Shown here: piece by piece, positions 268-29,012 of the stretch | How positions within the stretch are numbered: position 1 is the stretch's first letter | Layout: every line of letters begins with the position of its first letter | Origin: Marsupella aquatica | Lineage: Eukaryota > Plantae > Marchantiophyta | NCBI GenBank assembly: GCA_973895155.1 | Contig: OZ316891.1 | Location: 32,313,208-32,377,207, forward strand | Length of the DNA: 64,000 nt | Direction: 5' to 3' | Translations under genes and position numbers: made by a program | The notes under the pieces: model-generated | Told to the model about the DNA's origin: nothing | Database searches by the model: none | The model's input: only the letters and a program-made list of their open reading frames with translations

Positions 268-1905
268 TTGGTCACCACGGATTCTTCTGGTGCTGCTGGA
301 TTACCCAATGGACGACGGACCAGTTTCACTCGGAGTGGGGCACAGTTTCGGCCAACGGCATTGGTAGCAGTCAATAGTGCAGCTTCAGACAGTGATTCTG
401 ATGAGGACTCAGTGACCAGTTCTCCTCGTCATCAGGTGGTTGCACCTTTGTTGTGGGATATGGACGAGATGTACGGGGCTACAAAGGGCCCACGACGATA
501 CTCTGGTGCAGTTGGCACAATTGATCTGGATGACTTCATCCAGGAGTTTGATACGTGGTGCGATATGCAGACATTGCATAACGCCACGTTGTTTACCCCT
601 TTCATGGCATGGAAGGGATTATTTCAGCATTTGGAGGGGCCACCCATGGATGACTACCATGAGTTTCGGAAGGCTCATTTGGTTGAGATTGAGGCATGGA
701 GGCAGCATTGGTCACCTAATTATGTGTCCATCACCTATGGCACTAGTGCGGCTGCCCAACCCATTGCCACAGCTGTTGCCTCTTCTAGCAGCACTAGCCA
801 GAGTGGCACACCATCCACCAGCAGCACTCCAGCAGCATCCACCGCTACTCCTGCCGGTGTGATTGTGACAGGAACTGGAGTTGCGCCAGCATTTAATCCT
901 GTGGTGGAATTCTTTGAGGTACTGAAGCAGAACTATCAGGGTGTGAGAACTGATAAGTTGAAGGGTCTCCAGGAGTTCCACCGCAAGACTGGAGAGAGTC
1001 TACGTGAGGCATACACTCGTATGCACAGATTGATCACTGTCACCAAGGGAGTGATAGAGGCTCAAGCAGTCCAGTTTTGGTATGCAATTTTGGATAGAGA
1101 ATTGCGACGTAGAGTGAGAGATGTCACTCTGCTTAGGGATGCAGATCCCACATTAGCAGTTGTTTTCACCCTTTCTGAGCGCATTGAGCTCAATATGGTG
1201 AATGAGAAGGTGGTGACTTCTGGATTTACCAAGGAAGCACCAAAGGCTGCATCTACATCCACACCACAGCCTACTGCATGGAAGAGCCAGAGGGAGAAGC
1301 CTACTGCACGAGAGTCTACCAGCCAGAGACCTGTGCCCTCTTATGCTGGACAGCAGTCAGGATGTTGCACCTGTGGTGGGGATCATGCACGGAGATATTG
1401 TCCAGATCATAGAGGATCAGGGGGAGCATCAGCGCCTGATCAGCGACAGTGTGATCACTGTGGAGCTCCTGGACACACCAAGGATAGGTGTTTCTCACTC
1501 CATCCTGAGTTACGGAGAGGAGGATCCCGTACACATGATCAGGGAAGAGGAGGAGGAGGTAGAGGGGGTGGACGTGGTCGTGGCATGCCACATGCAGGGA
1601 GACAGGGAGGTAACGCTGCCCCTGCTGTAACCATAGATCCAAAGGATGCTAAGATTGCTCAATTGGAGCAACAACTAGTTGCCATGGCTAGTTCCCAAGT
1701 GAGACCTACTTCTGGTGATGGGGCATCTACATCCTATGGACCTTCCACATCCCATGGTCCTTCCACATCTTATGGAGCTGATGGAGATCTTGCCACCATG
1801 GGATTCATGTCTGGCACTGCACATATTGATGCATCAGCAACTTTAACACGTGGGGTAGCCAAAGCTCTTGAGCCCCGAGGAGCAGTAGTGGAGCTAGATC
1901 CATAG
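268..1905 (+). pseudogene. Element A gag (capsid-like region, two zinc knuckles, RGG-rich segment)
   Basis: CCTCGGDHARRYC and CDHCGAPGHTKDRC knuckles; MHR-like 'RKTGESLREAYTRM'; ends at TAG 1903-1905, in frame with the downstream protease. Confidence 0.85.
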
Positions 1906-1947
1906 AGGGGGGATGCACGTCAGACAAAGCTTCCTCAGTCTTTTACA

Positions 1948-2919
1948 TTGTCAGAGACAGTTCACACTGCCTCTATGAACCCTGTTCGGACAAACCCTGA
2001 TGTGGGTAAGTTGGCAGAATCAGGTAGTGATGCAGCAGGGATGACAGGTACCTTGCTGGGGGCGGCTATTGCCATGGTACGCGCCCCATTATTTTCAGCG
2101 ACAGACATGCTGAACTTGGGATTTGGTCCTGCAGAAGTATTTAGATTGGCAGCTACACTCTGTGAGGACACTCCAGTTGTTGCTTCCCATGTAGAAGCAG
2201 CTTGCAGTGTTGAAGCAGTGAAGACCATACCACCTACTGCTACTAGTGAGACATGGCATGCAGCAGCAGCAAGGTTGGTGGATTTACCAGCATGCCCTGC
2301 ATTTGAGAGGACTAGGTTTAAACCTAGTGTTGTATCATTGGATAATCGGAGTGGTATCTTCCAATTAGTTGGGCCTTCTGGAGTAGTATACCAGCCAGAG
2401 AGAGTGTTACTGGATATTGGTGCTCAGCCCTTGATGTTGGGGAAGTCTGCCATACATGGATTGAGATTGCGTCCAGAGGATTTGGAGGATTGTCCCTTTC
2501 CCATTCAGACTTCATTGGGGGGACCTACACCTACACAGCATATCACCAGGAGACCACTTGATTTGAGGATTCAGGAAGGTCATACCACAGATAGCTCACA
2601 GATACAGGCGCGAGCTATTCTAACTAAGGCAGAGTCATATGATGTGTTGGTGGGATGTACAATGCTCTACCCCATGGGATTTATTCTTGATTTTTGGGAG
2701 GAATTAGTATCATATAGACCTGATTGGCAGTCAGGAGATGCTCGATTGAGAAAGTTGCCAGTGAGATTTAGTGGACCTATGGGAGGCCCTAAATCCACAC
2801 CATTGTCTTTGGCAGCATTCAGTGGTGTAATTGCTGGACCTGATGATTTGATTGAAGGTAATGCGCATGCAGCCGATGTTCCACCATTGGAGGAGTCTCA
2901 TGAGGAGCACATCATGTGA
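1948..2919 (+). pseudogene. Element A retropepsin-like aspartic protease region
   Basis: 'RVLLDIGAQPLM' (DTG/DSG-type site, degenerate) and 'YDVLVGCTML' (ILG-type motif); same frame as gag. Confidence 0.75.
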
Positions 2920-3120
2920 GGATTACATGTTGGCAGTGTTGTGCCACCAGTGTGGGGCACTGCACAAGCCTTGCCACAGGCAGCAGCACGATTGGTACAT
3001 GATGCATGGCGTCATGCTTTTACACCACAGTCAGGAGCAGAGCAGTCTCTTGCAGATGGACCTGTGACTCTTTCACCATTGGATACCACTCCTATTGCTT
3101 GGCAATATCCACCGGAGGGT

Positions 3121-3696
3121 ATTTGTTTGTTGGATCTTTTTGGTGGGATTAGCACTGGATTGGCTGCTATTCTTCAGGCATGAATTCCTGTGCGTCGTTA
3201 TTTGTATGTGGAGACAGATGAGACAGCACGGAGGGTCTTATTGCAACATGTGGCTATGTTGGTGGATAGATATCCACAGTTGTTGCCAGTGGATGTTGTT
3301 TGTGGTTATCAACATGCACTACCTGCTGATATTTCATTGTTGGGGGCGGATCATCTACATCGTGTTGGCCCCATTGATTTGGTGATTGCTGGTTGGCCAT
3401 GTCAGGGCCAATCTAGAGCTGGCATTGGGCATGGACTTCATGATCCACGCTCTGCATTGTTTTGGGAGATGTTACGGGTGCTGCGTCATCTCCAGCTACA
3501 TCAGACACAGTCTCCAGCATACATTTTGGAGAATGTGCCATTGTTAGGTGATGATCATAGTCGGATTGTTGCCAGTGTTCACCAGGTGAGGTCTTGGATT
3601 GGACTTGCTGTGTTATTGGATGCTGCACGTGTGGGTTCTCGTGCACATCGTCCACGCTTGTGGTGGACTAATTTGATCCCATGTGAGGTGCTGAAG
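3121..3696 (+). pseudogene. DNMT3-like cytosine-5 DNA methyltransferase domain within the element A polyprotein (motifs I-VIII; truncated by insertion)
   Basis: Motif I LLDLFGGISTG, II YVETD, IV LVIAGWPCQGQS (PCQ 3397-3405), V RSALFWE, VI YILENVP (ENV 3529-3537), VII LLDAARV, VIII AHRPRLWWTNL (cf. DNMT3 AHRARYFWGNL). One in-frame TGA at 3181-3183; motifs IX-X are lost at the TGTCAC junction at 3697. Confidence 0.92.
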
Positions 3697-3998
3697 TGTC
3701 ACTTGCCTATCCAACGATTAATACATGCAAACCATACTTTTCCTTGCTTAAATCGTTGGTATCGTATTACGGGGTCATGGAGGGACGCTATTTGGAGGAT
3801 TTCCACACCTAAGGAGGAGTATGTTTGATTCCGCTCCCGGAAGTGTACTTTTTGATCAAGTCTACCGACTGGTCTCTCCATTTTTGATCAAGTCCAAGGG
3901 ACTGGTCCTACCATCTACAACTCATGCCCACCAGGTGAGTGCTGTCACCACCCCCCTCCTTTCTTGGGCAAGCATACAAACATTTACAATAAGATTTG
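3697..3998 (-). mobile_element. Element X: 3' end of an LTR related to the element D LTR (left fragment)
   Basis: Abrupt junction at TGTCAC (minus strand ...GTGACA). Minus-strand ccgggagcggaatcaaacatac (3819-3840) resembles D-LTR ccggcggcggaatccaaacatac (28676-28698). Continues after Bianca at 22990. Confidence 0.6.
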
Positions 3999-4136
3999 TG
4001 TTATAAGATGTAGATTACACTCTAAGTGACAATTAGGAGTTAGGGCAGTTACATAACTGCCCATCAATGTAACCCATATATTCTTACACTCCTAAGAGAA
4101 GCGTGATCATTGTTGGTGAATACATTGAATGAAACA
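3999..4136 (+). repeat. Bianca 5' LTR (138 bp)
   Basis: Exact direct repeat of 22852-22989; contains the dyad gggcagtta-ca-taactgccc at 4043-4062. Confidence 0.97.
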
Positions 4137-4150
4137 CGTTATCAGCACGA
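4137..4150 (+). promoter_or_regulatory. Bianca-type primer binding site (internal/half tRNA-Met priming)
   Basis: CGTTATCAGCACGA directly after the LTR, without the TGG of 3'-CCA priming; characteristic of Bianca. Confidence 0.8.
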
Positions 4151-4372
4151 GCTGATGTGTGTGACAAATTTTTTTTTAGATAGAGGCAGATGACGCGCAG
4201 TTAAACTTCAGCAGCACTATTCCTCGATTGGAACTGATTCTTGGAACTCGGTGAGAGAAATCCATCAGGTTTTGAACGATACCATCTCCTTAGCCATAAA
4301 CGATTGCATTATCACAGAACCTTATTACAAGCTAGCCAGCATCGGAACTTCCAATTGCAGCATTGATCAATC

Positions 4373-7300
4373 ATGGAGAAATTACATTTCAAAGCTCTCG
4401 CGATCGATGGCACAAATTACTTGTCTTGGTCTTTAGATGTGGAGGCACATCTAGCATCTAAAGACCTGCAAGACACAACCTTAACCGATGCAGGTACTAC
4501 ATTACAACAGAAGGCTCAGGCCTTGATACTAATCAGGCACCATCTTGCTGAACCGCTTAAGACTCAATATCTCAATCACTACAACCCAAGGGTCCTATGG
4601 GACGAACTACAATTACGCTTCGATCATATGCGGACCATATCACTCCCGACAGCCCGCCACGATTGGATAAACCTGCGAGTACAAGATTACAGCACAATTG
4701 CGAGTTATAACAGCGAACTGTTCCGAATTACCTCCCAATTAGCTGTCTGCGGTAATCCAGTGGATGATGAAGAGCAGATCGAAAAGACTCTGTCCACTTT
4801 TCATGTAACTAACATAGTTCTAGCCTCTCAATATCGAAACATGAATTTCACGCGGTATTCTCAATTGATATCACATATGCTCCTCGCTGAGAAGCATCAG
4901 ATAATACTGCTCAACAATGCTAAAACAAGACCACCAGGGAGTGCAGCCCCTCCAGCCAGACCAGAAACTCATCTTATGGCCTCAAGATTCCGGGGGCGCG
5001 GACGTGGCAACTTCAGGGGGAGCCGAGGACGTGCATTTGGAAGAGGAACTTACCAAGGATACAGAGGCAGTGGGAGCTTCCGACAACAATCCCAAGAATT
5101 CCAGCGAGACCCCACTTGGAATCAACGCGGAGGTGGCGGACGGAATCGAGGAAGAGGCTACCAAGCACAACCAAGAGATAAGTTTATTACACCCTCTTGT
5201 TTCCGATGCGGTACAAAAGGACATTTACAAAAAGAATGTCGGGCTCCTGCACACTTGGTCAAGCTCTATAAAGAAAGTATAAACAGGCAAACAGAAGATG
5301 CACAAGGCAATTTTATGGAAATTCCTGAAGACATACATGCTTATACACATGATACACCCCTTCCAGAAACCCACGTTGCTCACATGGATGCACAATCACA
5401 AGGCAAATTAACACCATCTAATTGCATAGTAGATAGTGGGACCTCCCACTCCATCCTAAGAAATCGACATTTTTTTCGAACAATTATAGCTTCTCACAGA
5501 GCCATAACTACCATCACAGGACAGAATCATATTGAGGAAGGGCACGGCCCCGCATCAGTTTGTTTCCCCCAGGGCACAGTAATCAACATCTCCTCGGCAA
5601 TATACGCACCTAAAGCCACACGAAATTTAATTAGTTTCCAAGACATAAGAGCTAACAACTTTCACATATATACAAGCAAGACCAATGAGGGTGAAGTCCT
5701 ACACATTATTGACCATTCTCCACCTGGAATGAAAATCTGTGAAACCTTGCCTATCCACCCTCCCGGGTTATACATCACCACCATACACGCATTACATGTA
5801 GAAATAGTTCCTCCAACTCCCACAGAGCGCTGGCACAATCGGCTAGGCCACCCTGGTACCAACATGTACCATAATATAATCCGGGATACGATAGGCATAC
5901 CCCAAGGGGTGCGCCCATCATCTCTGAAGAGCCCCTGTCTTGCGTGTTCACAGGGAAAGTTAATCACCAGACCAGCCACATCTAAAACAATTCACTCCAT
6001 TCCTAAATTCCTCGAAAGGCTTCACGCTGACGTATGTGGCCCGATTGACCCGCCATCTGGTCCATTCCGGTTTTACTTGGCCATTATTGATGCTTCATCA
6101 AAATGGTCCCAAGTTTCACTGATCTCGACCCGGAACCTAGTATTCCCACGGATTTTATCACACATCCTCAAGTTAAAGCTACAGTTCCCTGACAATCCAA
6201 TAAAGACACTCAGGGTTGATAATGCCAGGGAGTTCACGTCGAAAACATTCGATGATTTTTGTGAGACTGCCGGCATAGAAACCCAATATTCGGTACCGCA
6301 CGTTCATTTTCAGAACGGCATAGCAGAATCTCTCATTAAAAGACTACAAATGATAGCTCGGCCACTCCTCATGCAAACACAGCTTCCTCCTACAGCATGG
6401 GGACATGCAATATTGCATGCAGCTGCTCTCCTAAAATATAGACCTTCCGCATTTAATACCCATACTCCGCATTACCTTGCATTTGGTATACCACCTAACA
6501 TTTCTCACTTGCGGACGTTTGGGTGTTTAGTCCTTGTCCCTATCCTAGGCCCAAAACGCACCAAGATGGGCCCCCAGCGCCAACGAGGGATTTATGTTGG
6601 TTTTGACTCACCCTCCATTATTCGGTTCCTGGAACCATCCACAACAGATGTGTTCAAGGCCAGATTCCTTGACTGTACCTTTTTCGAAGACGAATTTCCG
6701 AAACTAACTACACATCCATCCGATGAGAATGGCAGAAAACAATTATTACAATGGCAGACCATCCTACCGGTGGGACTTGATCCACGTACCAGACAAGCTG
6801 ATGCAGAAGTCAGATGCATATTACATCTCCATCAGATGCTGGAAAAGCTCCCGGACGCTTTTAATGATGTAGCTGAAGTAACCCGTTCACACACAGAGGC
6901 GGCCAATACTCCAGCCCGAATACTAATACCAGACCAACTTGCCACTGAAGCTGCCCCAAGAGCAAAACGAGGTCGACCACTGGGCTCTAGAGACAGCCAA
7001 CCTCGCCAACGACGACCACCAGCTAACCCAACGAATGTGCCACCTCCACCGGTACCATCTACCCACTCTCTCACTCAGCCAGAAGAAAATCAAGAAATAT
7101 CCATCAATTATATGCATACTGGTCGATTATGGCATCGAAAGGATACAATTATAGATGATATATTTGCATTCGATATATCTCAGGATATCACCAATGACAC
7201 CCCAGATCCCCTGTCAGTCCACGAGGCACAGCAGCGGCCTGATTGGCCCCAGTGGGAGATAGCACTTAATTCTGAATTGGACTCATTAATTCAATGAGAA

Positions 7301-7377
7301 GTCTTTGGTCCGGTCATTCCTGCCCCTCTACACACATCACTTATCGGATATAAATTCATTTTCACACGGAAAAGAAA
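4373..7377 (+). pseudogene. Bianca gag-PR-IN and start of RT
   Basis: CFRCGTKGHLQKEC knuckle, IVDSGTSH protease, WHNRLGH..CLAC, LHADVCGP / RVDNAREF / GIAESLIKR integrase; premature TGA 7295-7297; cut at ...FTRKR by element C. Confidence 0.93.
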
Positions 7378-8768
7378 TGTGGTATGGGTGTCCCTGCAAT
7401 TTTTTCTGGAAACTTGTTTATTTTTAGCATATCACAAGATTTACTTACACTTTAGACACCTTCCGGCCAACATTTACTTGTTCTGGACACTTATAGAAAT
7501 ATTTGACATCTCCGGCTTTCCTGACGATTCCTAGTGTACTTTGCCCGACGCTGTGACCAGCGCCCGTTTCTTTTACTCAAGACGCTGCGGAAGCGTCCAA
7601 CCTCCTCATGACGCTTTTGGCAGCGCCCGACCGCCACCAAGACTCTATGAGGATTTCGACCGACGCTGTGGAAAGCGTCAGCTTCAACACACGACGCTGT
7701 GAGCAGCGTCCACCCTAGTATTGACGCTGTGAGCAGTGTGAGCAGCGTCCGTTGGTTTTACTTAAGACGCTTCTAGCAGCGTCCAGATTCTCCCGACGCT
7801 TCTAGCAGCGTCCGCTCAACACTTAGTTTTTGAAGTAGATTACTAGTAAAGTAGTATTCTACCACCCTTGTTGAAGTACTTATGCTGTGCTTCTCCCTTG
7901 TTTAGTTTTAAGCTTGGAAAGGCATGACTGTTCTTACCTCCTCCATTTTAGGATTCCAGCACTTATAAGACAGAGTAGAATGCTCATTTGAAGTAGAGAG
8001 AAATAGAGTTAATACTGTATTCAGAATTGAGTCTTCTGAATAGTTTTCTCCTCCTTCCATTGTAACAAGGCATGCTGTGAGTGTTTTGTATGGAAGTAAA
8101 GCTATATTGATTGAAGTTAAGATTGAATTCAAGAGATTCCTGTGGTGATTGAATTCAGTTGCAGATTTCTGAAACTCGTATTGAATTCAGTGCTAGGCTT
8201 GCTTGCAGAGTCGGGATTCGCTAGCCAATTCAAGAATAGTTAATGATAAATGAGAAGTAAATTCTGATTCTCAGAGTAGTTAGTACTGTTGCTTTGATTC
8301 TGGAATATGGTTTAGAGTTTGACTGAATTGTGTATCGCTGATGTCAAACCATGTTGACGGCATTTTAAATCATATCATTCATTTGCAATCAGAAAGCTTC
8401 TGCTTCATCAGATTGAGAATTCCATTATCATTAACCTTTGTGTTTTGAAGAGTGAGATGGATGAATTATGAGATAGATTTCATGTCTATACTGAGCCCAA
8501 ATCCTTTCTGAAGGAGTGGCAGTAGCAGCTTGTAGTCTCTAAATCCTTACTCATTTCTTCTCTAATTCATAAATCAGAAGTTCAGTTACTTTGTTGTTTG
8601 TTTATTCGATTTTTTTTATTGAGAAGTGAAGTCAACATAGAGCTCAAGACTCTAAATCACTCGGAGTGATAAAAGTTATACAATTCATTCTGAAATCTGT
8701 TCTTAAAGGGATCGAAACCCTGGTTTTAGGTGAGAAGAGTCACTTTTGATACTTAGCACTATACGACA
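7378..8768 (+). repeat. Element C 5' LTR (1391 bp)
   Basis: TGTGGTAT...ATACGACA; direct repeat of 19541-20931 with only two substitutions noticed (7925/20088 and 8190/20353). Confidence 0.96.
7548..7812. repeat. Cluster of ~8 GACGCT-N5-6-AGCGTC dyads near the 5' end (U3) of the C LTR
   Basis: For example gacgctgtgagcagcgtc, gacgcttctagcagcgtc, gacgctgtggaaagcgtc; also present in the 3' LTR. Confidence 0.85.
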
Positions 8769-8774
8769 TCTTTT

Positions 8775-8792
8775 TGGCGCCGCTGCCGGGGA
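8775..8792 (+). promoter_or_regulatory. Element C PBS (Athila-type, tRNA-Asp-like)
   Basis: TGGCGCCGCTGCCGGGGA after a 6-nt spacer TCTTTT. Confidence 0.85.
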
Positions 8793-9986
8793 ACGAATTT
8801 AAGATTGAATTGACGTACAGGCAGTGTATGCCAGAAGGAGCTAGACGGGAGAGGAATTCACGTTCTACTATAATTGTAAAGATGCGTCATCACTCCAGTT
8901 AAAAAGATGAAGAGCTTCCATTTTGAGGTGATGCCGTACTCTATCCAAAGCGCCCCGGAAGCTCTCTTAAGAGTATTGGAAAAATTTGTGGTGCCAAACT
9001 TAAGAGAAGAAACCGCCCTCCCACCAGAAAAGGCCTCACAGAGAGGAGCTGTTGCTCGTCAAGTTGCTTTGGAGATAGTCGAAGACACCAAAGACACTTT
9101 GAGTGACAAGTGAAGTTATTCTAACGTTGCTCGGGACGTATGATTTGTAAAATTGTCCAACCATCCTGGTTCGTGTGACCGATGCCACCTATCCGATCTT
9201 TGGGAACATTAAGAATTAGGAATTTGAGGAATCGTTATGTTAATTCTTGGGTTCTGAGCCTGAGAGGGAGGAATGGCATACATTGGTTAACTATCACCTG
9301 GTGGGAAGATGAAAGTTTGCATTTAGTAATATTAAGGCTGAATGGTAGGATCACACAGGAGAGATATTTAGTCATTTCCATTCGGGAGTTAGCGGAAAGA
9401 ATCATGCACCAGGAATTGCGTAGAAGATTAGGAAGGAGTTAGACGTCTGATTAGTAGGATGGCCTAGTGTAGCGTACCATGTGGTAAAGAAATTTCAGGG
9501 TGAAGGAAGTCGGAGATTATCAGGAACGCCCGGTTCCAGTAATCGCCACCGTAAAGGAGATAAGGAAGGACGCCGCGAAGAGCGTCCAATGCGATTCGTC
9601 CCAGAAGATTCCGCAAGTCAGGACGCTTCGAGTAGCGTCCGATCCCAGTGGACGCTGTGAGCAGCGTCCGGTGGAATCTGTGACGAACCAACGTGCGCGA
9701 CGCTTCTGGTGTGCCTTTCCGCGTCTCAACCTGAAGGACGCACCAGAGAAAACGAGGTTTTAGAATCTCGGCTGGTCACTGAAGGGAAGTATTAGCTACG
9801 GGATAGCAAGGGGGAGGAATCATGCAAGGGATGTTGAACGACGCTACGGGAAGTCACTTTGAGGAAGCAGGTTCATATCTCCCGGAGTGGGGTGATAACG
9901 TCGCACCTAAATGGTGACTCCTTGCATAAAGACTCCTGAGGAGCGGGTCTGGTGTCTCAAAATCACCCGTGCTTGGAGAATGAGGG

Positions 9987-12900
9987 ATGTCTGAGGGAGA
10001 TCCACCGAATAAAAGAAAACCTACCAAGACCTCCAGTAATTCGGATGCTGCAAAATTAGTAGTGACCCCTCGCACATTGTTACCCGAATTCCAGTCACCA
10101 GGAGCACCTGCACCGGGTAGTGTGTGGAAACAAGTGGGATCTATTCAAGAGGCAAGTGGCTCTTTGGAAAGGCCCACGTCGACCCGACCCCTGTTTGTAA
10201 ATCTTCGTTCAGGTCCAAAACTTATTGGTTCTCAAAAGACCAAGCTCCGCCAGCAGACAGTACGTTCGGTGAACCAAATTGACTCTGGTGTGGATAGTAC
10301 CACTGAGAGGGCCTTATCTCATACCGAAGGAAGAAATTTGGGTTTGCCCGAGAATACAGTTGCAGAATCGCTGGCCCAAGATAATTCTGTCGATCTTTCA
10401 CAATTGGATAATCCAGAACCACTGAGTGAAGCCGGTGGTTCGTCTTCTAGTGAGACAAGCAGCAGTTCAGGCTTGGGCAGCCCAAACCCATTTGCTACCC
10501 GATCAGCTCTTCCTTTCGTTACCCTCCTAGCTCCAACCACGATGGCTCGAAATAATGTGAGGTACGACCGGTTCTTCGGTACTTCCAAGGAGGATGCAGA
10601 GGTGTATTTGAAAGAATTTGAAGCTGCAGCTGCATCCAATGGACAGAGTCAAGACGCTGAAAAAGCCAATCTGTTTGGTGGTCTAATGAAAAAGGGTGCT
10701 CAGAAATGGTATGACCGTTTTCCGGACAAGCAGGATTGGGGGAAATTGAAGGCTGCTTTCTTGGCCAAATATAAAGAAGAAGGAGCAGCTGCGCGTGCCT
10801 TTGCCCGAATCTCACATCTGCACATGAAGAAACATGGGTCTGTGAGGAAATATGCCGACAAATTATTGGATTTGGTAGATCAATATAATCCAGCTACCTC
10901 GAAATCTACTATCAAGGACTGGTTTATTAACGGTTTACCCTCCAGGATTGCTCGTTACGTGAGACGAGAAGGTGGCACCACTTTGGAAGAAGTACAAGAG
11001 GCAGCCCAGAAGTACGTAGACTCGGAGATTTCAGAGAGAAAACGAGTTAAGAAGGACCTGAAGAAAGACAAAAGAAAGAAGAAGAAAACGTCCAGGTCTA
11101 AATCTGACTCGGAGACGGAATCAAGTGAAAGTAGCACTAGTGAGGAGGACGAGAGTACAAATTCGAGCACTAGTGATAGTTCAAGCTCAAGTTCCGACTC
11201 AGAATCCGTTGCTCCTAAAAAGAAGAAATCCTCTGTAAAAGGGAATAATAAAGTTCCCAACCAGAAGAAGATGGATCGCATGATGGAAGAACTCTCTGGC
11301 CAATTGTCCAAGTTGAATGTCAATATCGCCGCGGTAAAACCAGTACGAAGGTTGCCTGCTCCCATGAGAATGAACGTATGGTGCACCCGATGCAGTCAGC
11401 AGGGCCATTACCCGAACGAGTGCCCCACATTACGAACCCCGGTGAATTATGTAGATGGTCAAGAAGAGGCTGAGGAGTATGAGTACGATCCCGCGTATAC
11501 CGTCCAAACAGCACCCCCTGGACAGTATTTCCCACCACCTCCTGCTTCCAGACCGACTTGGGGACCACCTAAGCCCACTTTCAATAAACCAACGTCAAGA
11601 CCACCCATGGGACCCCCGGGAAGATACCCACCACGAGGAATGCCGCGTCAAAAAGGGGCTTGTTGGAATTGTGGCCAACCTGATCATTATTCACCCCAGT
11701 GCCCTTATCCCAAACAGGAGGTGGGGTATACACCTGTCTGTGGGAACTGTGGAAAAGAAGGACACTTACCGGTGGAATGCCCGAATCCGGCTAAGCCTAG
11801 GCTGATGGTTCGATTTGCTCAAGAGCCAGTTAAAGAAGCAAGTCGACCTGAAGCCAAGATTCGGATGGTTTATTCTGAAGAGATGGAGCAATGCAGCTTC
11901 ATTCAACATATGGATGTAAATCGGGTGGAATTAAAGCCAGATTCACTTTTTCATCAACCAGTATCCGGGGTGGTGCCTGATGTCTTGGTAAGTCATTTAG
12001 TGAAACCTGAAGTAGTTGGTATGCCGAATGATCGAGTTCAGAATCGGGATAAAGTTCTGACTAATATTTACGCAACTACTCGTTCGAAGAAAAAGGAGAC
12101 CAAGAAGCACGAGCATCAGAAGGTCGCGAAAGCTCCCAAGGATGAAGGGCGCAAGCCATGTAAGGAAGGCCTCGACAAAGAAGACGACCCTGCTTATGAC
12201 CGATATGACCCAAAATACTTCTTGCCCGACATCTCTTTGGAAGTGAAAGACCATCTGGAAGAGCTAGTTAAGGAGCAAGTGCAATCTCCTAACCCACCAG
12301 TAGTAGTCAAAGCTAAAGAGCCACTGAAAAATCCAGGTTATGATATTGTTGAAGATGTCAAGAATCATCCTGCACATATCACCATTGGGGAATTATTACA
12401 GGACAATCCGGTTTATAGGCGACAGCTGAGGAGCCTCCTTGCAGGAAAACGGAGGAAGAAGAAGTTACCTTCTGTGGATGTGCTACGAACAGAGTGGGAG
12501 GACAAAGGACCGATGGAAATTGAGGTTCAAATCCAGGGGTGTGTCATTCGGAGAGTTCCTGTGGATGGAGGAGCCAGCGTTAATCTGATTACACAGTCAG
12601 CAGCATTTAATTTGGGTTTCACTAAGTTTGAGCCCACTCCCAAGATTTTGCGCATGGCGGATCAGTCTCGTGTGGTACCCATAGGGAAGCTGACCAAAGT
12701 AGAAACTTTGATTGCTGGTGTCCCTTTTCTGTTGGATTATGTGGTTATTAATCCGGAAATACCATCCAGCTTTCCTGTTTTGTTAGGCCGACCATGGTTG
12801 TATAAGGCTCAAGTTCAGGTTAATTGGCAATCTCAAGAGCTTTCATTTGGGAAGCCTAAGGTGACTGTTAGTTGGGTTCCGGAACCACATTTTGGAGAAA

Positions 12901-13040
12901 CACAAACAGATGATGGGTACACCTCGGATTTTTCGACCTCTTCGCTAGTCCTGCAGCCATTGGAATTTGAACTGGAGGAAGTTCGTTACTTGGAAGTTTA
13001 TCTGTCTGATGCTCCCATAAAACCAACTAGGCCCTCCTGA
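9987..13040 (+). CDS. Element C Gag-protease polyprotein (1017 aa)
   Basis: Retrotrans_gag-like region; three CCHC knuckles (CTRCSQQGHYPNEC, CWNCGQPDHYSPQC, CGNCGKEGHLPVEC); protease VPVDGGAS ... LLGRPWL. Confidence 0.92.
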   Translation: MSEGDPPNKRKPTKTSSNSDAAKLVVTPRTLLPEFQSPGAPAPGSVWKQVGSIQEASGSLERPTSTRPLFVNLRSGPKLIGSQKTKLRQQTVRSVNQIDSGVDSTTERALSHTEGRNLGLPENTVAESLAQDNSVDLSQLDNPEPLSEAGGSSSSETSSSSGLGSPNPFATRSALPFVTLLAPTTMARNNVRYDRFFGTSKEDAEVYLKEFEAAAASNGQSQDAEKANLFGGLMKKGAQKWYDRFPDKQDWGKLKAAFLAKYKEEGAAARAFARISHLHMKKHGSVRKYADKLLDLVDQYNPATSKSTIKDWFINGLPSRIARYVRREGGTTLEEVQEAAQKYVDSEISERKRVKKDLKKDKRKKKKTSRSKSDSETESSESSTSEEDESTNSSTSDSSSSSSDSESVAPKKKKSSVKGNNKVPNQKKMDRMMEELSGQLSKLNVNIAAVKPVRRLPAPMRMNVWCTRCSQQGHYPNECPTLRTPVNYVDGQEEAEEYEYDPAYTVQTAPPGQYFPPPPASRPTWGPPKPTFNKPTSRPPMGPPGRYPPRGMPRQKGACWNCGQPDHYSPQCPYPKQEVGYTPVCGNCGKEGHLPVECPNPAKPRLMVRFAQEPVKEASRPEAKIRMVYSEEMEQCSFIQHMDVNRVELKPDSLFHQPVSGVVPDVLVSHLVKPEVVGMPNDRVQNRDKVLTNIYATTRSKKKETKKHEHQKVAKAPKDEGRKPCKEGLDKEDDPAYDRYDPKYFLPDISLEVKDHLEELVKEQVQSPNPPVVVKAKEPLKNPGYDIVEDVKNHPAHITIGELLQDNPVYRRQLRSLLAGKRRKKKLPSVDVLRTEWEDKGPMEIEVQIQGCVIRRVPVDGGASVNLITQSAAFNLGFTKFEPTPKILRMADQSRVVPIGKLTKVETLIAGVPFLLDYVVINPEIPSSFPVLLGRPWLYKAQVQVNWQSQELSFGKPKVTVSWVPEPHFGETQTDDGYTSDFSTSSLVLQPLEFELEEVRYLEVYLSDAPIKPTRPS

Positions 13041-13046
13041 CAATTA
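13038..13046 (+). promoter_or_regulatory. Candidate stop-codon readthrough signal TGA-CAA-TTA between PR and RT
   Basis: Stop followed by CARYYA (TMV-type leaky context); the downstream RT is in the same frame. Confidence 0.7.
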
Positions 13047-16013
13047 ACTTCATCATCGGAAGTGGGCCCAGCAGCAGACGAACCTCCTAATACTGAGGCT
13101 AATAGGGATTTACACCATGATATGGGAGTGTCAGCTACCCTTGAGCCATTTGCACCAGAAGTATCCAAACTTGGACTTCAGCCGGCAAACCTCACGGATG
13201 GAATTGTGGATCCAAAAGCTTGTCAGAAAATCGAAATTGAGCCAGGCAAGTTTTTGAATATTGGTAAGCATATCGAAGGAGAGCTACGGGAACAGTATAT
13301 CAGTTTATTAACCCAGTATAAAGATGTCTTTGCCTGGAGTCATTCTGATTTAAAAGGTATCCATCCACATTTGGGCGAACATCGTATTGACCTTATGGAA
13401 GGAGCAGTACCTGTCCGACAGAGACAGTACCGTTTGAATCCCAAATATTCCATCCTGGTTAAAGACGAGTTGGACAAGCTCACGACTGCTGGATTTATCT
13501 ACCCGGTCTTGAGTAGTGAATGGGTCTCACCAATTGTCATTGTCCCCAAAAAGCCGGGACCCGATGGTAAAACGAAAATTCGCGTTTGTCAAGACTTCCG
13601 GAAGTTGAATGCTGCCACTCGGAAAGATCATTATCCTTTGCCATTTATTGATCTGGTACTTGATTCAGTGGCCTTGCATGAGTTATACAGTTTTTTAGAT
13701 GGGTACTCTGGTTATAACCAGGTGTCCATTCGGAAGGAGGATCACGACAAGACTACGTTCACCACCGACTGGGGTACATATGCATTTACCATGATGCCTT
13801 TTGGGCTGTGTAATGCCCCGGGTACTTTTCAGCGCATTATGATGATTATTTTTCAAGAATATTTGCGGCATTTCATGGAGATTTTTATTGACGACTTTTG
13901 TGTTTACGGGTCAGCGGCTGAACACCTCGTCCATTTGGAGAAGACATTTCAGAAGTGTAGAGAGGCTCAGTTGTGTCTTCATCCAGAAAAGTGCTTTATT
14001 GGTATGAAGGAGGGAATTTTGTTAGGCCATGTTATTTCACAACGCGGCATTGAGGTTGATACAGAGAAGGTTAGAGTAATTATGGAGTTGCAACCACCGA
14101 CCGATTTAAAGCAGCTTTGTGCTTTTCTGGGACATGTGGGGTATTATCGTCGGTTCATTTTTAAACATGCTAATATTGCCTTACCCTTAACCCAACTGTT
14201 AAAAAGTGATGTGGAATATACATGGAATGAGGAGCGGCAGCAAGCATTCCAGTTGCTCAAGGATCGGTTAATCTCTGCACCTATTTTGTCACCCCCAGAT
14301 TGGACTAAGAAGTTTCATGTCTTCATTGACTCTTCTGCATTCTGCATTGGAGCTAATCTCAGTCAGAAGGATGTGGAAAACCGTGACCATCCAATTTACT
14401 ATGCCAGCCGCCAAATGAGTGCAGCCGAGAAAAACTACTCCGTCACTGAACGGGAAGCTTTGGCCATCGTCTTTGCGTGTAAGAAATTTCGTCACTATTT
14501 GTTGGGGTATCAGGTTACTTTTCACACTGATCATAATTCCTTAAAATATTTGGTTAACCAAGTGGATCTCTCAGGACGAGTAGCCCGCTGGGTTTTACTA
14601 CTCCAAGAATTTGATTATGAAGTTCATGTCCGACCTGGCAAACATCATGAGAATGCAGACTTCCTATCTCGGTTACCTGGTCCGGAGAATCAGCATAATC
14701 TCTCCGATGAATTTCCTGACGAGCATTTGTGGCACATTGAAGGGGAGTCTTCTCGATATTTTAATATTGTGCACATGCTGCTTCATGGAACGTTCCCTGA
14801 AGGCTTTAATGCGGAAGAACGAGCTGTCTTTGCTCATAAGGTGGGTCCCTATACCATTATTCGGGGCACTTTGTTTAAACAAGGTCCTGATCAACAATTA
14901 TGACGTTGTCTAGAGGATAGGGAACTTCCCCAAGTAATTGAAGCTTTACATTCAGGAGAAACCGGTGGGCATTATGCTGTGAATACCACAGTTAAGAAAA
15001 TTTTGGATGCTGGATACTGGTGGCCTACTATGCATCGAGATACTTACAATTTTATTAAGACCTGTGATCCCTGTCAAAGGATCGGGAAGCCCACTGCTAG
15101 TTCCAAATGGCCTCTTACGCCTATCCTTCCGTTGGCACCATTTGAGAAATGGGGGATTGATTTTATTGGCCCAATTTCTCCAGCAGCTCGGAAAAGCCGA
15201 AGCAAATATATTATTCTGGCCACTGATTATGCCACCAAATGGGTAGAGGCGAAAGCTACTCGCAAGAATGATGCTATAACCGCAGCTGCATTTCTCTTTG
15301 AGCACATTATCACCCGGTTTGGTTGTCCTTTGGAGTTGGTAAGCGATAGGGGTTTGCATTTTCTTAACTCAACTATTGAGTTAATCACTGACCTTTATCT
15401 TATCAAGCATCGCAAAACTACTCCTTACAACCCCCGAGCTAATGGCTTAACCGAGAGAGCTAATGGCATTATGGGCAAGATTCTGAATAAAATGGTAGAA
15501 TCTCACAAGACAGATTGGGATGTGAAGCTCCATTCTGCATTATGGGCTTACCGCACCGCTGAGAAGATTACAACTCTTCACACCCCCTTCTATCTGACCT
15601 ATGGCCTGAATAGTATTATTCCAATAGAATTTTCGTTACCAACGGAACGTATCTTGGTACCACACCGACTCTCTCCTTCAGATAGTCTCTCACATCGGTT
15701 TTCCAATATTGTTAAATTAGAAGAAGTTAGACTTTTAGCATTAGACCATACAGTCACCATTCAGAACCAGCGTAAACTTGCTTATGATAAGAAGCTGCGC
15801 GTAGTGCAGTTAGATGTTGGTGATTTAGCATTAGTCTTTGATTCTCGTTATATGCTATTTCCTGGGAAACTTCATACTCATTGGATTGGTCCTTACCGAG
15901 TTACACACATCTGGGATAATGGTTCAGTTTCATTGACTACCTTAGATGGTCACCCACTTAACACTAGAATCAATGGGTTTAGGATTAAACGGTACTATGA
16001 GTCTTCCATTTAG
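13041..16013 (+). pseudogene. Element C RT-RNase H-integrase
   Basis: RVCQDFRKLN, FLDGYSGY, FIDDF, RNase H TEREALA/TDH, IN H..H..CDPC, GIDFIG, SDRG, NGLTER, WIGPY; one TGA at 14901-14903 (QL*RCL); no chromodomain and no additional archaeal-type RNase H. Confidence 0.95.
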
Positions 16014-16035
16014 AATTCCACCTGGGACAGGTTGC

Positions 16036-16051
16036 AATTTAAGTGGAGGGC
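16036..16051 (+). promoter_or_regulatory. Element C internal PPT (PPT1) just after pol
   Basis: AATTTAAGTGGAGGGC, identical to the PPT before the 3' LTR (19523-19538); dual PPTs are known in Athila. Confidence 0.8.
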
Positions 16052-16400
16052 GGTAGTTATACTTAGTTAGAATTAGTGACCCTCCCTAGTAAGTATTCGG
16101 CATATTTTTATTTTTTATTTTTTTTAGTTACTTTCAGTTTTTACATTGGACGCTGTGAAAAGCGTCCATTGTAACTCGACGCTGGGGAAGCGTCCACTTA
16201 GTTTACAAAGGACGTTGTGCAGAGGTCCGCTTTTGTATTAGTTCAGTTGCATGAGACGCTGTGAGCCGATGACTAGGCGTCTTGTACAATGGCGGATTGC
16301 GATAGCTCAACGGGACGCTGAGGAGTAAGCAGTCGCGCTTCGCCCTAGTTCACTATGGAACACGATTCTCACTGAGCTTACGGAGCTAACAAGTCACGCG

Positions 16401-19400
16401 ATGGCGGAGACTGAGCTGACGACGCGACCAATACTCGCAGACATTCCATCGAATGCAGTGCATAGGCGGCAGTTGAAGACGGCTCTGGCAAAAATGGGCT
16501 TGAAGAAGCTGCTTCAACTTCCTTGGAAGATTTGCGAATTCAGCCTTATCGATCAAGGTGTCTGGGATGCTAAAGAAAGGATTGGTGTGCGCTCGCGTCC
16601 CAGTGTTTGGACTGAAGCGCTCATAGCGAAGGTCTATTCGACGCTGATGGAGGGCGAGGATTTACAGAGGGTTGATTGTGAGCCTCGGGTTTATGTAGAA
16701 TCCTTCTTCGCTCCAGGATCTTTCAAGAGGCGGAATGGATGGCTAGCGGCGGACTGCTTAGATAATTCTTTGTAGCGTCTATTTCGATTTCTGGCACCAA
16801 TTTTCTACCCAGAAAGCCAGACGCGCATCACTCTTTTGTTCGCTGCAACGGTGATCTGTTCATTAGAACAGACGCAGTCTATCAATTGGACGAAGGTTTT
16901 GCACCGAGTAATTCATACTCAGGGTCAAAAATTTTCGTAGCAGGCTGAAAACGGGAAAATAAGGTGTACCTACTTGGCCCCTTATTTAGCTCACATTTAC
17001 CATAAGTATGACTGTCTGCTTGTCTTGGAAAAAGATTTTTATCGCAACAATCAGAGAGCATCTACCGGTGAAGCAAATTATATGCCTGAAGTACGAGAAG
17101 TCCGAGCCAATTCCACAGTGGTAGAGCTATGTGCAATACTCGACTGTGAGGAACCTGAACTGGTGGGTGAAGTTCGGAAATTGAAAGAGACAAGAGCATC
17201 AGCTGAAGGGAGTGACGATCCGATTCTTCACCAACCAAGAGAGGCTCAAGTTGCCGAAGATGTTCCTTCAGCAATGCCAACAGGGTTGGAGCATTCTATG
17301 TCACCTCGACTCTCGTGTTCACCTTGTGCTGCCGAGCCTATTTATGATGTTGATCAGGATAATTCTGCTTCTCGGATGAATGTTGAAGATGAGGTGAGGG
17401 TGGATGAAGAAGGTTTTTCAGGGGAACCTCTTCAACATTCTACTGCTGAGGACGAGTATGATGGATTTACTTCTACCCCTGTTTTGGTTCCCATAGAGGC
17501 AAATAGTGATGCTTTGCAGGCTTTACAGGAGTATGATTCGTCCGACTCTCTTAGTTCTAGCCCAAATATAGGTGAAATCCCTCTGGTCCAGGAGTCAGAA
17601 ATATTAAGCTCAGAAATTGTGAAGCTGGTTAAAGTTGATTCGGAGGATGCAATTGTGGATATAGACGAAGTAGGTGAACCAGTGACTTCTCCCCAATCTG
17701 TCGCAAGATACCCTGCCTGGTCTACACCTGGTTCACTCATATCGATTCCTTTGGATATAACTAAGGAATTAGATGAGGCAATAGCCGCGATAGGAGCTCC
17801 TTCATTTCCGCCTGTAAAATGGGTTTCTCCTGAAGATGAGTTGATTGAAGGAGGCTCTGCTGGTTTTCCGAGTCGCAATCAGGTATCTGGTAATATGGGT
17901 ATATCTGTACCCATATTGGTACCCGAGACACCCGCTTCGACAACCAGCTCAGCACCAGTTTCATTGGCTACAAACGAGGATAAAAACATTCGGGAGGAGT
18001 TTTCAGTGACGTATACTCGAAAATCTTGGAAACGGTTGCGCCATGCTATCAGTCGACAGATCTTTCCTGAAGCATCTTCCCAGGATTTTGAACAGGGAGA
18101 AGCACCTATCGGAACAGACGAGCTACCCCTTCCTGTACTTTTGGCAGATCGAACTAACCAGGAAGTCTCTTTACCTAGCGATAATTTTAAAGAAGAACTT
18201 CCTGTTTTAGTACCAATGCATCCCACTGCAGATCAACCAGCTACTGTTGCAAGAGAAGAATTTGAACCACTGGAGCCCGAACCTTCTGCTCCTTCGTCTC
18301 CTGTTACATTGCCAATTCGACCAGTTAAGGAGTCAGTGATTCCTTCCGCTATGCCAGATGTAATTTTCCGTTGGATAGGAGCACCAAGTGATGGAGAAGA
18401 AGACGAAGACCCTCGCATTATCAGAGTACCTCCTCGACTTCGGCATACAGTGGATTTGCCACCCCGAAATCCTATCCCTAATTTGGCTTCAATTCACAGG
18501 TGGGAGAAGAAACATTTTCGAGTAGCTTTTCGACATCTGGAGATGGAGAGCATTTTGCAGCAGCAGCAGATTTTGCCAATGACATCCCATCCGAGGATTC
18601 GTAGTTTGATTCGCACATATGAACCTGGGAAGGCGGTTCCTCCCATTGATAAGGACAGACGACATAAGTTTTCGGAGTTCGAAATTTGGTGTTGGGTGTA
18701 TATGCTTCGACGAGCTCAAGCTCCATTTCCGCCCCTTGTGCCGGAAATTCCATGGCCCTATCCATACTATGTTTGGGTTTGTCCTGGTGGGTTTGCTATT
18801 CCAATTAAATATGAGAAGAAGCTTGTTAAGCTAAGGGAGCAGTTGATTACAAAACAATGTATGCTACCGGCTTCCCAAGGGTTCAAGTCGCTTAGGTGTT
18901 TAGCGTTCCTACCTATTATTCCTTCTTATCCGGATGTGATTATTCAAGGTGTTTTATCTAGGACACAGATTTGAAGGACACCATTTATGAGAGATATCAA
19001 ACGGTGTTGTCATTTATATGTATATAAGCCGTTACTTTTGCAGCATCCTGCAATTGTTTCCTTCTTTCTCCTTCGAATTGATATTTATCTGCTCATGTGG
19101 GACATCAAAGCTACTATGGATTGTTGGAATTCTTTACCCCGTGCTTTCCAACATTCCTTTGAAGGCAAGATCAAACTGGAAGGACATGCTATTCAACACT
19201 TTGTTATTGATCCAGGCTCTCGAATTAATTTCCTCTCCCACAGACTGTGCCAGCAATTTGTTCATCAAGAAGTACAACCGATATCTGCTCAGATATCAAT
19301 CGATGGACGAATCATTAATCTTTGGGGAAGAGTTAAAGGAGTCCCAATACAGATCGGAGAAGAATTCCATGACCTCGATTTTTATATTCTGGATTCGGAT

Positions 19401-19463
19401 ATCTCCCAACTCCCGTCAATGATTTTGAGCACTACTTGGATTATTAAGCCAGAATATTATTAA
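16401..19463 (+). pseudogene. Element C extra ORF (~1020 codons, one frame, three internal stops): plant-mobile-domain-like N-terminus, acidic disordered middle, C-terminal retropepsin-like domain
   Basis: ORF pieces starting at 16401, 16974 and 18987 share one frame; stops at 16773, 16938 and 18972; N-terminal LLQLPW..WTEALIAKVY..RNGWLAADC resembles the D-LTR ORF; C-terminal FVIDPGSRINFLS ... MILSTTW. Confidence 0.7.
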
Positions 19464-19522
19464 TGAAGAACATGTCACTCGCTTCTGATTCAATTCGGTC
19501 ATGTCTTGTGGGGACACGGCGA

Positions 19523-19540
19523 AATTTAAGTGGAGGGCTA
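19523..19540 (+). promoter_or_regulatory. Element C 3' PPT
   Basis: AATTTAAGTGGAGGGCTA directly before the TG of the 3' LTR. Confidence 0.9.
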
Positions 19541-20931
19541 TGTGGTATGGGTGTCCCTGCAATTTTTTCTGGAAACTTGTTTATTTTTAGCATATCACAA
19601 GATTTACTTACACTTTAGACACCTTCCGGCCAACATTTACTTGTTCTGGACACTTATAGAAATATTTGACATCTCCGGCTTTCCTGACGATTCCTAGTGT
19701 ACTTTGCCCGACGCTGTGACCAGCGCCCGTTTCTTTTACTCAAGACGCTGCGGAAGCGTCCAACCTCCTCATGACGCTTTTGGCAGCGCCCGACCGCCAC
19801 CAAGACTCTATGAGGATTTCGACCGACGCTGTGGAAAGCGTCAGCTTCAACACACGACGCTGTGAGCAGCGTCCACCCTAGTATTGACGCTGTGAGCAGT
19901 GTGAGCAGCGTCCGTTGGTTTTACTTAAGACGCTTCTAGCAGCGTCCAGATTCTCCCGACGCTTCTAGCAGCGTCCGCTCAACACTTAGTTTTTGAAGTA
20001 GATTACTAGTAAAGTAGTATTCTACCACCCTTGTTGAAGTACTTATGCTGTGCTTCTCCCTTGTTTAGTTTTAAGCTTGGAAAGGCACGACTGTTCTTAC
20101 CTCCTCCATTTTAGGATTCCAGCACTTATAAGACAGAGTAGAATGCTCATTTGAAGTAGAGAGAAATAGAGTTAATACTGTATTCAGAATTGAGTCTTCT
20201 GAATAGTTTTCTCCTCCTTCCATTGTAACAAGGCATGCTGTGAGTGTTTTGTATGGAAGTAAAGCTATATTGATTGAAGTTAAGATTGAATTCAAGAGAT
20301 TCCTGTGGTGATTGAATTCAGTTGCAGATTTCTGAAACTCGTATTGAATTCACTGCTAGGCTTGCTTGCAGAGTCGGGATTCGCTAGCCAATTCAAGAAT
20401 AGTTAATGATAAATGAGAAGTAAATTCTGATTCTCAGAGTAGTTAGTACTGTTGCTTTGATTCTGGAATATGGTTTAGAGTTTGACTGAATTGTGTATCG
20501 CTGATGTCAAACCATGTTGACGGCATTTTAAATCATATCATTCATTTGCAATCAGAAAGCTTCTGCTTCATCAGATTGAGAATTCCATTATCATTAACCT
20601 TTGTGTTTTGAAGAGTGAGATGGATGAATTATGAGATAGATTTCATGTCTATACTGAGCCCAAATCCTTTCTGAAGGAGTGGCAGTAGCAGCTTGTAGTC
20701 TCTAAATCCTTACTCATTTCTTCTCTAATTCATAAATCAGAAGTTCAGTTACTTTGTTGTTTGTTTATTCGATTTTTTTTATTGAGAAGTGAAGTCAACA
20801 TAGAGCTCAAGACTCTAAATCACTCGGAGTGATAAAAGTTATACAATTCATTCTGAAATCTGTTCTTAAAGGGATCGAAACCCTGGTTTTAGGTGAGAAG
20901 AGTCACTTTTGATACTTAGCACTATACGACA
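19541..20931 (+). repeat. Element C 3' LTR (1391 bp)
   Basis: Direct repeat of 7378-8768. Confidence 0.96.
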
Positions 20932-20998
20932 TCTTTTTAAAAAAAAAAATTAAAAAAAAAAATAAAAAATAAAAAATTGCAGGGACACCCATACCACA
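20932..20998 (-). repeat. Extra terminal segment of C: PBS spacer, A-rich tract, then an inverted copy of the first ~28 bp of the LTR
   Basis: tcttttt + A-rich run + aaaaaattgcagggacacccataccaca (reverse complement of 7378-7405), immediately followed by the TSD AGAAA. Confidence 0.92.
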
Positions 20999-22617: not shown

Positions 22618-22842
22618 AACTAAAACTCTCAAAACTGCACGAAACTTTCACTATAAAATTCTCATTAGATTACCCTAAATGTATTTCGATGACCTTATTA
22701 CTTGTACAGTAGTGGCACTCTTTCTTTCAGAAGAAAGCGGGAAAGTTTTAATGAGGCCATACTACTTATAAGGATCAAATAATTAACACTTAGAGTTACA
22801 ATCTCCATAGAGTGGTTCTTTTTCTAATCACTTCAAAGAACC

Positions 22843-22851
22843 AAGGGGGAG
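22843..22851 (+). promoter_or_regulatory. Bianca PPT
   Basis: AAGGGGGAG directly before the 3' LTR. Confidence 0.9.
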
Positions 22852-22989
22852 TGTTATAAGATGTAGATTACACTCTAAGTGACAATTAGGAGTTAGGGCA
22901 GTTACATAACTGCCCATCAATGTAACCCATATATTCTTACACTCCTAAGAGAAGCGTGATCATTGTTGGTGAATACATTGAATGAAACA
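22852..22989 (+). repeat. Bianca 3' LTR (138 bp)
   Basis: Exact repeat of 3999-4136. Confidence 0.97.
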
Positions 22990-28943: not shown

Positions 28944-28947
28944 TTTT

Positions 28948-28965: not shown

Positions 28966-29012
28966 GCATTTCTTAAGCCGTGAGATATGAAGTTAGAACG
29001 GAAGCGTAGGTA

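Follow-up and report, generated by a model that had tools for sequence, protein, structure and literature searches.

How does a cytosine methyltransferase come to lie in the reading frame of a retrotransposon, and what would it do there? The question is raised by a 64,000-nucleotide stretch of the liverwort Marsupella aquatica (contig OZ316891.1, positions 32,313,208 to 32,377,207, forward strand; this whole stretch is termed the window), in which a first-pass annotation had noticed gag, protease (PR) and a C5 cytosine methyltransferase (MTase) at positions 268–3696. The locus is a dead, broken copy of a Ty3/gypsy family. Its most probable interpretation is that of a split element whose first open reading frame (ORF) encodes Gag, PR and the DNMT3-like enzyme (Gag-PR-DNMT) and whose Pol lies past a stop codon that is likely read through; the MTase would be made at the level of Gag, and its predicted fate is packaging, followed by methylation of the DNA that the element newly makes.

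Translation of 268–3696 in frame 1 gave a single frame with exactly three stops (at 1903, 2917 and 3181), along which gag, two CCHC knuckles, a protease motif, a linker and the C5-MTase follow each other. The gag capsid-like region (460–1239, + strand) starts at a first Met that coincides with the start of stop-free relatives, which aligned from residue 1 in tblastn, and is 67% identical to the gag of the Marchantia protein P0004. The + strand continues with two CCHC zinc knuckles of the nucleocapsid (at 1363 and 1450) followed by a Gly/Arg-rich stretch (1363–1500), and with a retropepsin aspartic protease (2362–2721, catalytic Asp at 2413) whose motif is degraded to D-I-G in the window copy and reads D-T/S-G in relatives. 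Pfam recognized neither gag nor protease in the window copy itself, and a sequence search of its protease against the PDB gave no match. Both assignments were made because stop-free relatives have Pfam matches (Retrotrans_gag, E 3.5e-4, P0009; Asp_protease_2, E 1.2e-3, P0002; zf-CCHC, E 2.5e-7, P0220) and because the protease model of P0002 (pLDDT 85.9) matched Ddi1 and retroviral proteases in a fold search. The MTase (3106–3696, + strand) retains motifs I (DLFGG, 3133), II (3205), III (3328), IV (GWPCQ, 3391), VI (ENV, 3526) and VIII (AHRPRL, 3643).

The premature TAG at 1903–1905 (+) is copy-specific, as the stop-free relative P0200 has a sense reading at the same place; the TGA at 2917–2919 (+), in the linker between PR and MTase, is likewise copy-specific, with a sense codon in approximately 99% of the depth of contigs mapped from the public runs X1–X3. 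For the stops at 1903 and 3181, the latter inside the MTase, copy-specificity was deduced from stop-free proteins and not from mapped contigs. P0004 aligned to 460–3696 in one frame (54% identity, tblastn), and thus no intron is needed. Homology ends at 3696, where another repeat starts and the element breaks off; the target recognition domain (TRD) and motifs IX and X are therefore missing, and contigs of runs holding window DNA extend in frame beyond this point. The first-pass claims of an intron-free gag-PR-MTase frame and of a dead copy were thereby confirmed, the latter by three stops in the 5' half, the cut at 3696 and six stops in the 3' half described below.

The MTase was also correctly recognized as DNMT3-like. 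The window sequence matched PF00145 (E 4e-12), and in the PDB sequence ranking DNMT3A (E 2e-10), 3C and 3B preceded M.HaeIII (2e-5) and DRM2 (3e-4). An AlphaFold model of residues 340–680 of P0002, the closest relative (87% identical), had a pLDDT of 96.2; in VIA-align it was most similar to DNMT3B (Z 29.2, rmsd 2.7 over 279 residues), followed by DNMT3A (Z 27.8), M.MpeI (25.4), M.HhaI (22.8) and DNMT1 (19.8), and every Foldseek match listed was a DNMT3 structure. Thus, the closest sequence and fold matches are DNMT3A/B and not DNMT1, DNMT2, DRM or bacterial enzymes; matches in the ESM Atlas were generic C5-MTase clusters only. Among 111 near-complete domains, the catalytic Cys was found in 108, the Glu of ENV in all 111 and the two motif VIII arginines in 109 and 108, respectively. 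In 51 of the 111, mostly algal, motif IV reads E-C in place of P-C. Motifs IX and X, which the first-pass annotation expected in full-length copies, are present in the relatives and align to DNMT3A.

If the MTase had been a one-off acquisition, other copies of the family should lack it, as the first-pass annotation had reasoned; it recurs across family loci and named proteins. A search for the domain identified 33 proteins among 3280 candidates (19 from Marchantia, two from Calypogeia, two from Sphagnum and ten without organism name; the Marchantia models come from several assemblies, so they are not 19 independent loci). The best were 70–87% identical to the window MTase, with the stop-free ones of Marchantia, Sphagnum and Calypogeia at 70–75%; P0004, P0010, P0201 and P0220 are stop-free Gag-PR-DNMT proteins. 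HMMER against 1.84 billion representatives yielded 3365 matches at E ≤0.001, of which the best 150 were examined. In 188 proteins with a DNMT match, the domain lies between PR and reverse transcriptase (RT) in 48 and between RNase H (RH) and integrase (IN) in 57, the other 83 being too short. Named algal members are from Closterium (PR-DNMT-RT), Scenedesmus (RH-DNMT-IN-PHD), Cymbomonas and Klebsormidium nitens, the taxonomic range of the family being defined by few named entries. A large algal clade, including P0089 and P0190 (Scenedesmus), has the same DNMT between RH and IN and a C-terminal PHD. In JGI metagenome contigs, an alignment query matched 186 stretches, of which 152 were confirmed and 80 loci kept; the contig scan with P0002 as single query gave no match, and a scan of viral contigs gave only six weak MTase matches (25–39% identity).

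The domain order of the family recurs in these 80 loci and among proteins of named liverworts, mosses and algae, and the DNMT and RT trees show the same branching for the window copy, the loci L007, L076 and L064, and the Sphagnum-like and Marchantia entries. K. nitens P0290, the single Klebsormidium protein included, was placed at the unresolved base of both trees. These results bear on the proposal that a host DNMT3 retrocopy or a separate element came to lie in frame by chance, as a one-off capture or nested chimera. The window copy is indeed broken and heavily nested, and the DNMT tree was a quick search that took in no host plant DNMT3. However, besides the recurring order, identity is 21–27% to human DNMT3A versus 39–47% to algal retroelement domains, and DUF3444 was not found in any relative scanned. 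Because the MTase is conserved family-wide, this proposal is refuted and we attach next to no weight to it: the MTase is a family trait and not a recent one-off capture.

Several observations on the relatives are recorded here in their own right. Between L015 and Marchantia P0021, and between P0205 and P0004/P0008, identity was 86% in RT-RH and 75–78% in the MTase. Judged from these sequences, the identity of moss-like and liverwort elements appears high for so old a split, and horizontal transfer among bryophytes is possible. A second Ty3 family (L025:1–2000 and L055:14600–16500), approximately 51–61% identical in RH and IN and PHD-tipped in L055, is a candidate DNMT-less sister. P0166 has a PCIF1-type domain and P0122 a copia-type gag ahead of the DNMT.

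The MTase domain is under purifying selection family-wide, contrary to the neutral evolution that the first-pass annotation had named as a possible outcome. Between closer lineages, a nonsynonymous divergence (dN) of ~0.23 and a synonymous divergence (dS) of ~1.4, near saturation, gave a rough dN/dS of 0.14–0.17; the values were 0.14–0.32 against the distant L064, 0.23–0.26 for the protease and ~0.05 for RT where dS could be computed, synonymous sites being near saturation. Copies of the main group of JGI loci, which is called Sphagnum-like for an MTase 92% identical to a named Sphagnum protein, are mostly dead and had raw dN/dS values of 0.5–0.6. Among their non-deamination changes in the MTase, common ones comprised 12 nonsynonymous and 12 synonymous versus 190 and 58 for singletons (Fisher p 0.007), a depletion of replacements among widely shared changes; for changes in RT, RH and IN together the corresponding numbers were 3 and 22 versus 171 and 67.

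The first-pass annotation had placed the MTase inside one polyprotein between PR and RT. The position was retained, but continuity with RT was not. Proteins of intact relatives terminate 47–92 residues past the MTase domain, the distance being 47–90 in the stop-free P0004, P0010, P0201 and P0220. Of the 80 JGI loci, 60 span the MTase as well as the beginning of Pol; they fall into 49 clusters at 97% identity and, at 80%, into four lineages. In 57 of these 60, a stop occupies the homologous codon in the frame of RT; two more have a stop followed by an insertion, and one is frameshifted. The stop reads TAG CAA CCA in L007, TAG CAA TCA in L064, TAG TAG CCA in L076, and TAG or TAA followed by CAA CCC in the main group (48 of 60 loci); an exact CAR-YYA follows it in L007, L064 and L036. 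In L064, an unbroken RT-RH-IN-PHD frame of 1047 codons follows directly. In the RT tree, the stop-bearing elements fall into a single clade (support 100/99). A length search for close relatives of 2002–5000 amino acids returned one distant protein among 7274 candidates, a scarcity expected because the stop splits the first ORF from Pol and, taken alone, weak evidence. Four Marchantia/Sphagnum gene models that fuse MTase to RT (P0012, P0014, P0021, P0028) are without the junction region and look spliced by annotation. A frameshift between MTase and RT was considered and rejected, since the frame is unchanged in 47 of 59 loci and the others have scattered indels or insertions. In the nearly intact L064:504–4660, gag and PR-DNMT occupy different overlapping frames, and this element may use a frameshift plus a leaky stop.

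As far as its sequences tell, in the window clade the MTase thus closes the first ORF and is set apart from Pol by a conserved stop. In plant viruses, CAR-YYA after a stop suffices for readthrough and is the tobamovirus signal, and retroelements require Gag and Pol at approximately 20:1 (accessible text of PMC2194720); the tobacco mosaic virus (TMV) signal gave 6–10% readthrough in stable Arabidopsis lines, and UAA works too (accessible text of PMC2754532). By analogy, the conserved stop is likely read through at a few percent, so that the MTase would be made at Gag level. In-frame stops between ORFs in a CAA-YY context are likewise found in TMV (UAG-CAR-YYA), murine leukaemia virus gag-pol and SIRE1 pol-env (accessible text of PMC2194720 and PMC2754532). 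The stop of the window family differs in that it sits after protease and methyltransferase, not after gag, and readthrough is predicted.

The Pol half of the window copy, which the first-pass annotation expected as RT-RH-IN-PHD, was found at 36919–39687 (+ strand; Pfam on 36802–39687) with RT, RNase H, integrase, a C-terminal PHD finger and six premature stops; in tblastn against the window, the corresponding parts of ten relatives were placed at 36916–39681 on the same strand. A polypurine tract (39846–39860, +), also present in related loci, and a 3' split repeat (39861–40062, +; blastn to the family repeat) follow, the latter consisting of repeat B (39861–39996) and the start of repeat A, which is interrupted at 40062 by another inserted element. 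Mapped contigs split into mixed flanks at 39861 and 39996 (runs X1 and X2). Nested foreign insertions fill 3697–36918. They have replaced approximately 0.9 kb of element sequence, which would run from the TRD to the beginning of RT and hold the stop of the first ORF; tblastn detected no trace of this piece anywhere in the 64-kb window.

The two halves belong to one family, because their observed/expected CpG ratios are equal (0.30, compared with 0.61–0.68 in the nested retroelements), contig numbers are similar and their positions in the DNMT and RT trees agree. Contigs mapping to the 5' and 3' halves were similarly numerous in four public runs (11,706 and 11,161 in X1), and the RT-RH of the 3' half groups with Marchantia DNMT-bearing elements (support 98/97). 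The halves may stem from a single insertion or from two copies of the family; the window does not reach the 5' terminus, and no target duplication flanks the Ty3 element between them.

The family has no ordinary pair of long terminal repeats (LTRs). Its 5' end is repeat A (~330 bp, beginning TGTCA), and its 3' end consists of the polypurine tract and a 113-bp repeat B ending in GACA, after which A and B are repeated in L047, L054 and L019. The A-coding-B-A-B layout is complete in L047 and L054, a 3' B-A-B is present in L019, and seven of the ten loci with both ends are reduced to A-coding-B. In these ten loci, a 4-bp target duplication was exact in six, had one mismatch in three and was missing in one. 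Insertion by the DDE integrase was deduced from these duplications; together they rule out a DIRS/Ngaro tyrosine-recombinase element. The split repeats would hide the family from standard LTR finders.

A Gypsy-borne DNMT3 is described for K. nitens only, as KnitGypsy-Dnmt3, in the accessible text of de Mendoza et al. 2018 (PMC5890265), whose survey of 96 genomes included no liverwort and no Sphagnum and which, in that text, mentions no PHD, readthrough, Marchantia or liverwort. The present family resembles KnitGypsy-Dnmt3 in its Ty3/gypsy backbone (RT-RH-IN), in an intronless, unrearranged DNMT3-like domain with catalytic residues, in purifying selection (Ka/Ks <0.2) and in DIRS-like repeats, the A-coding-B-A-B layout being given there for both DIRS elements and KnitGypsy-Dnmt3. 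The K. nitens protein KFL_009030040 (P0290) has the order PR-DNMT-RT-RH-IN, as in the window family, and is 47% identical to the window copy in the DNMT (134 amino acids), 47% in RT, 60% in RH and 58% in IN. Unlike KnitGypsy-Dnmt3, as far as its description could be consulted, the window family has a land-plant host, and a conserved stop follows its MTase, which is the last domain of the Gag-PR ORF and not part of the Pol ORF. The element is a land-plant variant of the Klebsormidium-type Gypsy-DNMT3. The first-pass annotation rightly cited MTase-bearing retrotransposons as algal and dinoflagellate cases, but overstated how separate the window element is from them, given the order and repeat layout that it has in common with KnitGypsy-Dnmt3.

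Other systems are more remote. SymbioDIRS-Dnmt3 and SymbioLINE-Dnmt of dinoflagellates are likewise retrotransposon-borne cytosine methyltransferases, the former sharing the DNMT3 type and split repeats and showing CG activity in yeast (accessible text of PMC5890265); their backbones are of tyrosine-recombinase or LINE type, in contrast to the DDE integrase and 4-bp target duplications found here, and dinoflagellate-type domains are much more distant (24–27% identity). EpiLTRs of Cymbomonas and Euglena are also LTR elements with a cytosine methyltransferase and a chromatin reader, but differ by a DAM and a DNMT4-related domain plus a chromodomain, and the preprint itself sets them apart from streptophyte Gypsy-DNMT3 (accessible text of bioRxiv 10.64898/2026.05.21.726589). 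The host enzymes PpDNMT3a/b and MpDNMT3b have an unrearranged DNMT3-type catalytic domain as well (PMC6453930, 10.1101/2021.02.12.428880, both in part), with a C-terminal DUF3444 in place of which the window family has gag and protease upstream. 'Streptophyte' Gypsy-DNMT3 elements are mentioned, with land plants not named, in the accessible parts of PMC12344493 and the same preprint. No report of Gypsy-DNMT3 in land plants was found in the accessible literature, including REXdb and Marchantia, hornwort, liverwort and fern papers; supplements may include bryophyte rows, and subscription journals were mostly uncovered. The searched literature likewise contained nothing linking readthrough or split repeats to the Gypsy-DNMT3 family. 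What is new here is that the family extends to land plants, that its first ORF (Gag-PR-DNMT) closes at a conserved stop that looks leaky, that target duplications accompany its split repeats, and that green algae have a second order of the domains.

In the interpretation that we favour, ribosomes would read through the stop a few percent of the time to give Pol, by analogy with the tobamovirus CAR-YYA, and the MTase would be made in bulk at a Gag-like level. It is predicted to be packaged with Gag, released by the protease and then to methylate the element's cDNA inside the particle; insertion would be guided by the PHD finger of the integrase. The most likely purpose would be that new copies arrive marked like host repeat DNA and escape treatment as naked foreign DNA. 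cDNA methylation has been proposed as a role of retrotransposon-borne methyltransferases, and related dinoflagellate retrotransposon DNMT3s carried out de novo CG methylation in yeast (accessible text of PMC5890265).

Several results weigh against this interpretation. Since the window copy has lost the junction, only relatives show the stop, and in the nearest ones (P0002/P0200, 87% identical) it is represented by a protein end at the matching place. Gag-level dosage is not required clade-wide, because algal P0059, P0195, P0269 and P0279 have PR-DNMT-RT in one frame and many other relatives carry the DNMT between RH and IN. Constraint on the MTase is weaker than on RT, RH and IN (~0.16 vs 0.05–0.08, both rough). 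Base composition gives no sign of self-methylation, because the CpG ratio of 0.30 in the window copy is comparable to that of a CACTA transposon in the same window (0.23) and other lineages of the family reach 0.5–0.8. In addition, the KnitGypsy-Dnmt3 domain gave no methylation in yeast, a result that its authors call inconclusive (PMC5890265, accessible text), and the sequence context of the main-group stop, as follows, is imperfect.

The first ORF could also simply end at the stop, with Pol made separately by reinitiation at an ATG, from an internal promoter or by splicing, and the MTase still made with Gag. In the main group, an in-frame ATG lies six bases past the stop and the context, CAA CCC, is one base off CAR-YYA; a downstream stimulatory RNA structure was not supported (z −0.98, −1.58 and −1.42), and the in-frame gag stop of Tca2 is not necessarily read through (accessible text of PMC2194720). 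We nevertheless consider separate Pol synthesis unlikely, since the ATG is absent in L007 (GTG) and L064 (CAG) and TAG CAA and the frame are kept across lineages. A different possibility concerns the site of action: an active enzyme might have its main role in the nucleus, with integrated copies or host chromatin and not particle cDNA as its targets, and would there bring about self-limiting silencing or serve as an additional de novo MTase. Gag-level expression would yield surplus enzyme, the family is very abundant (11,706 contigs in run X1) and Marchantia annotations list several copies as genes. By established retroelement biology, however, being fused to Gag and PR suggests the particle as the site of action, and the MTase has no chromatin reader of its own, the PHD sitting on the integrase; a mainly nuclear role appears quite unlikely to us. 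Retention of the domain for nucleic-acid binding or RNA methylation, with no DNA methylation, would accord with the negative yeast assay and with the E-C version of motif IV. All catalytic and S-adenosylmethionine-binding residues and the full TRD are conserved, however, the fold ranks DNMT3 over DNMT2 (Z 29 vs 22), and human DNMT3B failed in the same yeast assay, and such a role is likewise judged quite unlikely. On balance, the packaged, Gag-level enzyme acting on the element's own cDNA is the interpretation retained here.

The surroundings of the element were characterized as well. The insertions at 3697–36918 comprise an unrelated repeat, a copia element (3998–22989) with a gypsy element inside and a Ty3 element with inverted LTRs (24272–36918). 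The copia element is young, with identical 139-bp LTRs and a 5-bp target duplication; the gypsy element has 1399-bp LTRs (7377–8775 and 19540–20938, 99.9% identical) and an extra ORF (16941–18971) with no Pfam match. In the Ty3 element, which has no target duplication, the left LTR (24272–28945, 4.7 kb) contains long ORFs and is followed by a primer-binding-site-like TGGCGCTAGA; after the purine tract it returns as reverse complement with a 2.9-kb internal deletion (97–98% identical). The CACTA transposon (Transposase_21, DUF4216, DUF4218) occupies 44174–51251 on the minus strand and is adjoined by an NSD-type PHD-finger ORF (50583–51251). A tandem array of ~577-bp and then 82–83-bp units covers 55000–60430, and a 42-bp array lies at 53540–53880.

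Taken more broadly, and put forward tentatively, an ancient green-lineage Ty3 clade of chlorophytes, charophytes and land plants may have retained an active DNMT3-type enzyme throughout its history and shifted its place within the polyprotein; its land-plant branch would make the enzyme at Gag level by means of a leaky stop, with many copies per particle, pre-methylated cDNA, and split repeats combined with a DDE integrase. If this is true, some de novo methylation in hosts that carry thousands of copies could come from this family, a source so far overlooked. In bryophyte annotations, DNMT counts are inflated by copies of the element. The conserved stop also yields a prediction of enzyme dosage. 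What retrotransposon-borne cytosine methyltransferases do has been an open question since 2018, as the known hosts, Symbiodinium and Klebsormidium, do not lend themselves easily to manipulation. Marchantia is a genetic model with stop-free Gag-PR-DNMT models (e.g. Mp_4g09160 and Mp_8g17980); with the family present there, self-methylation is directly testable.

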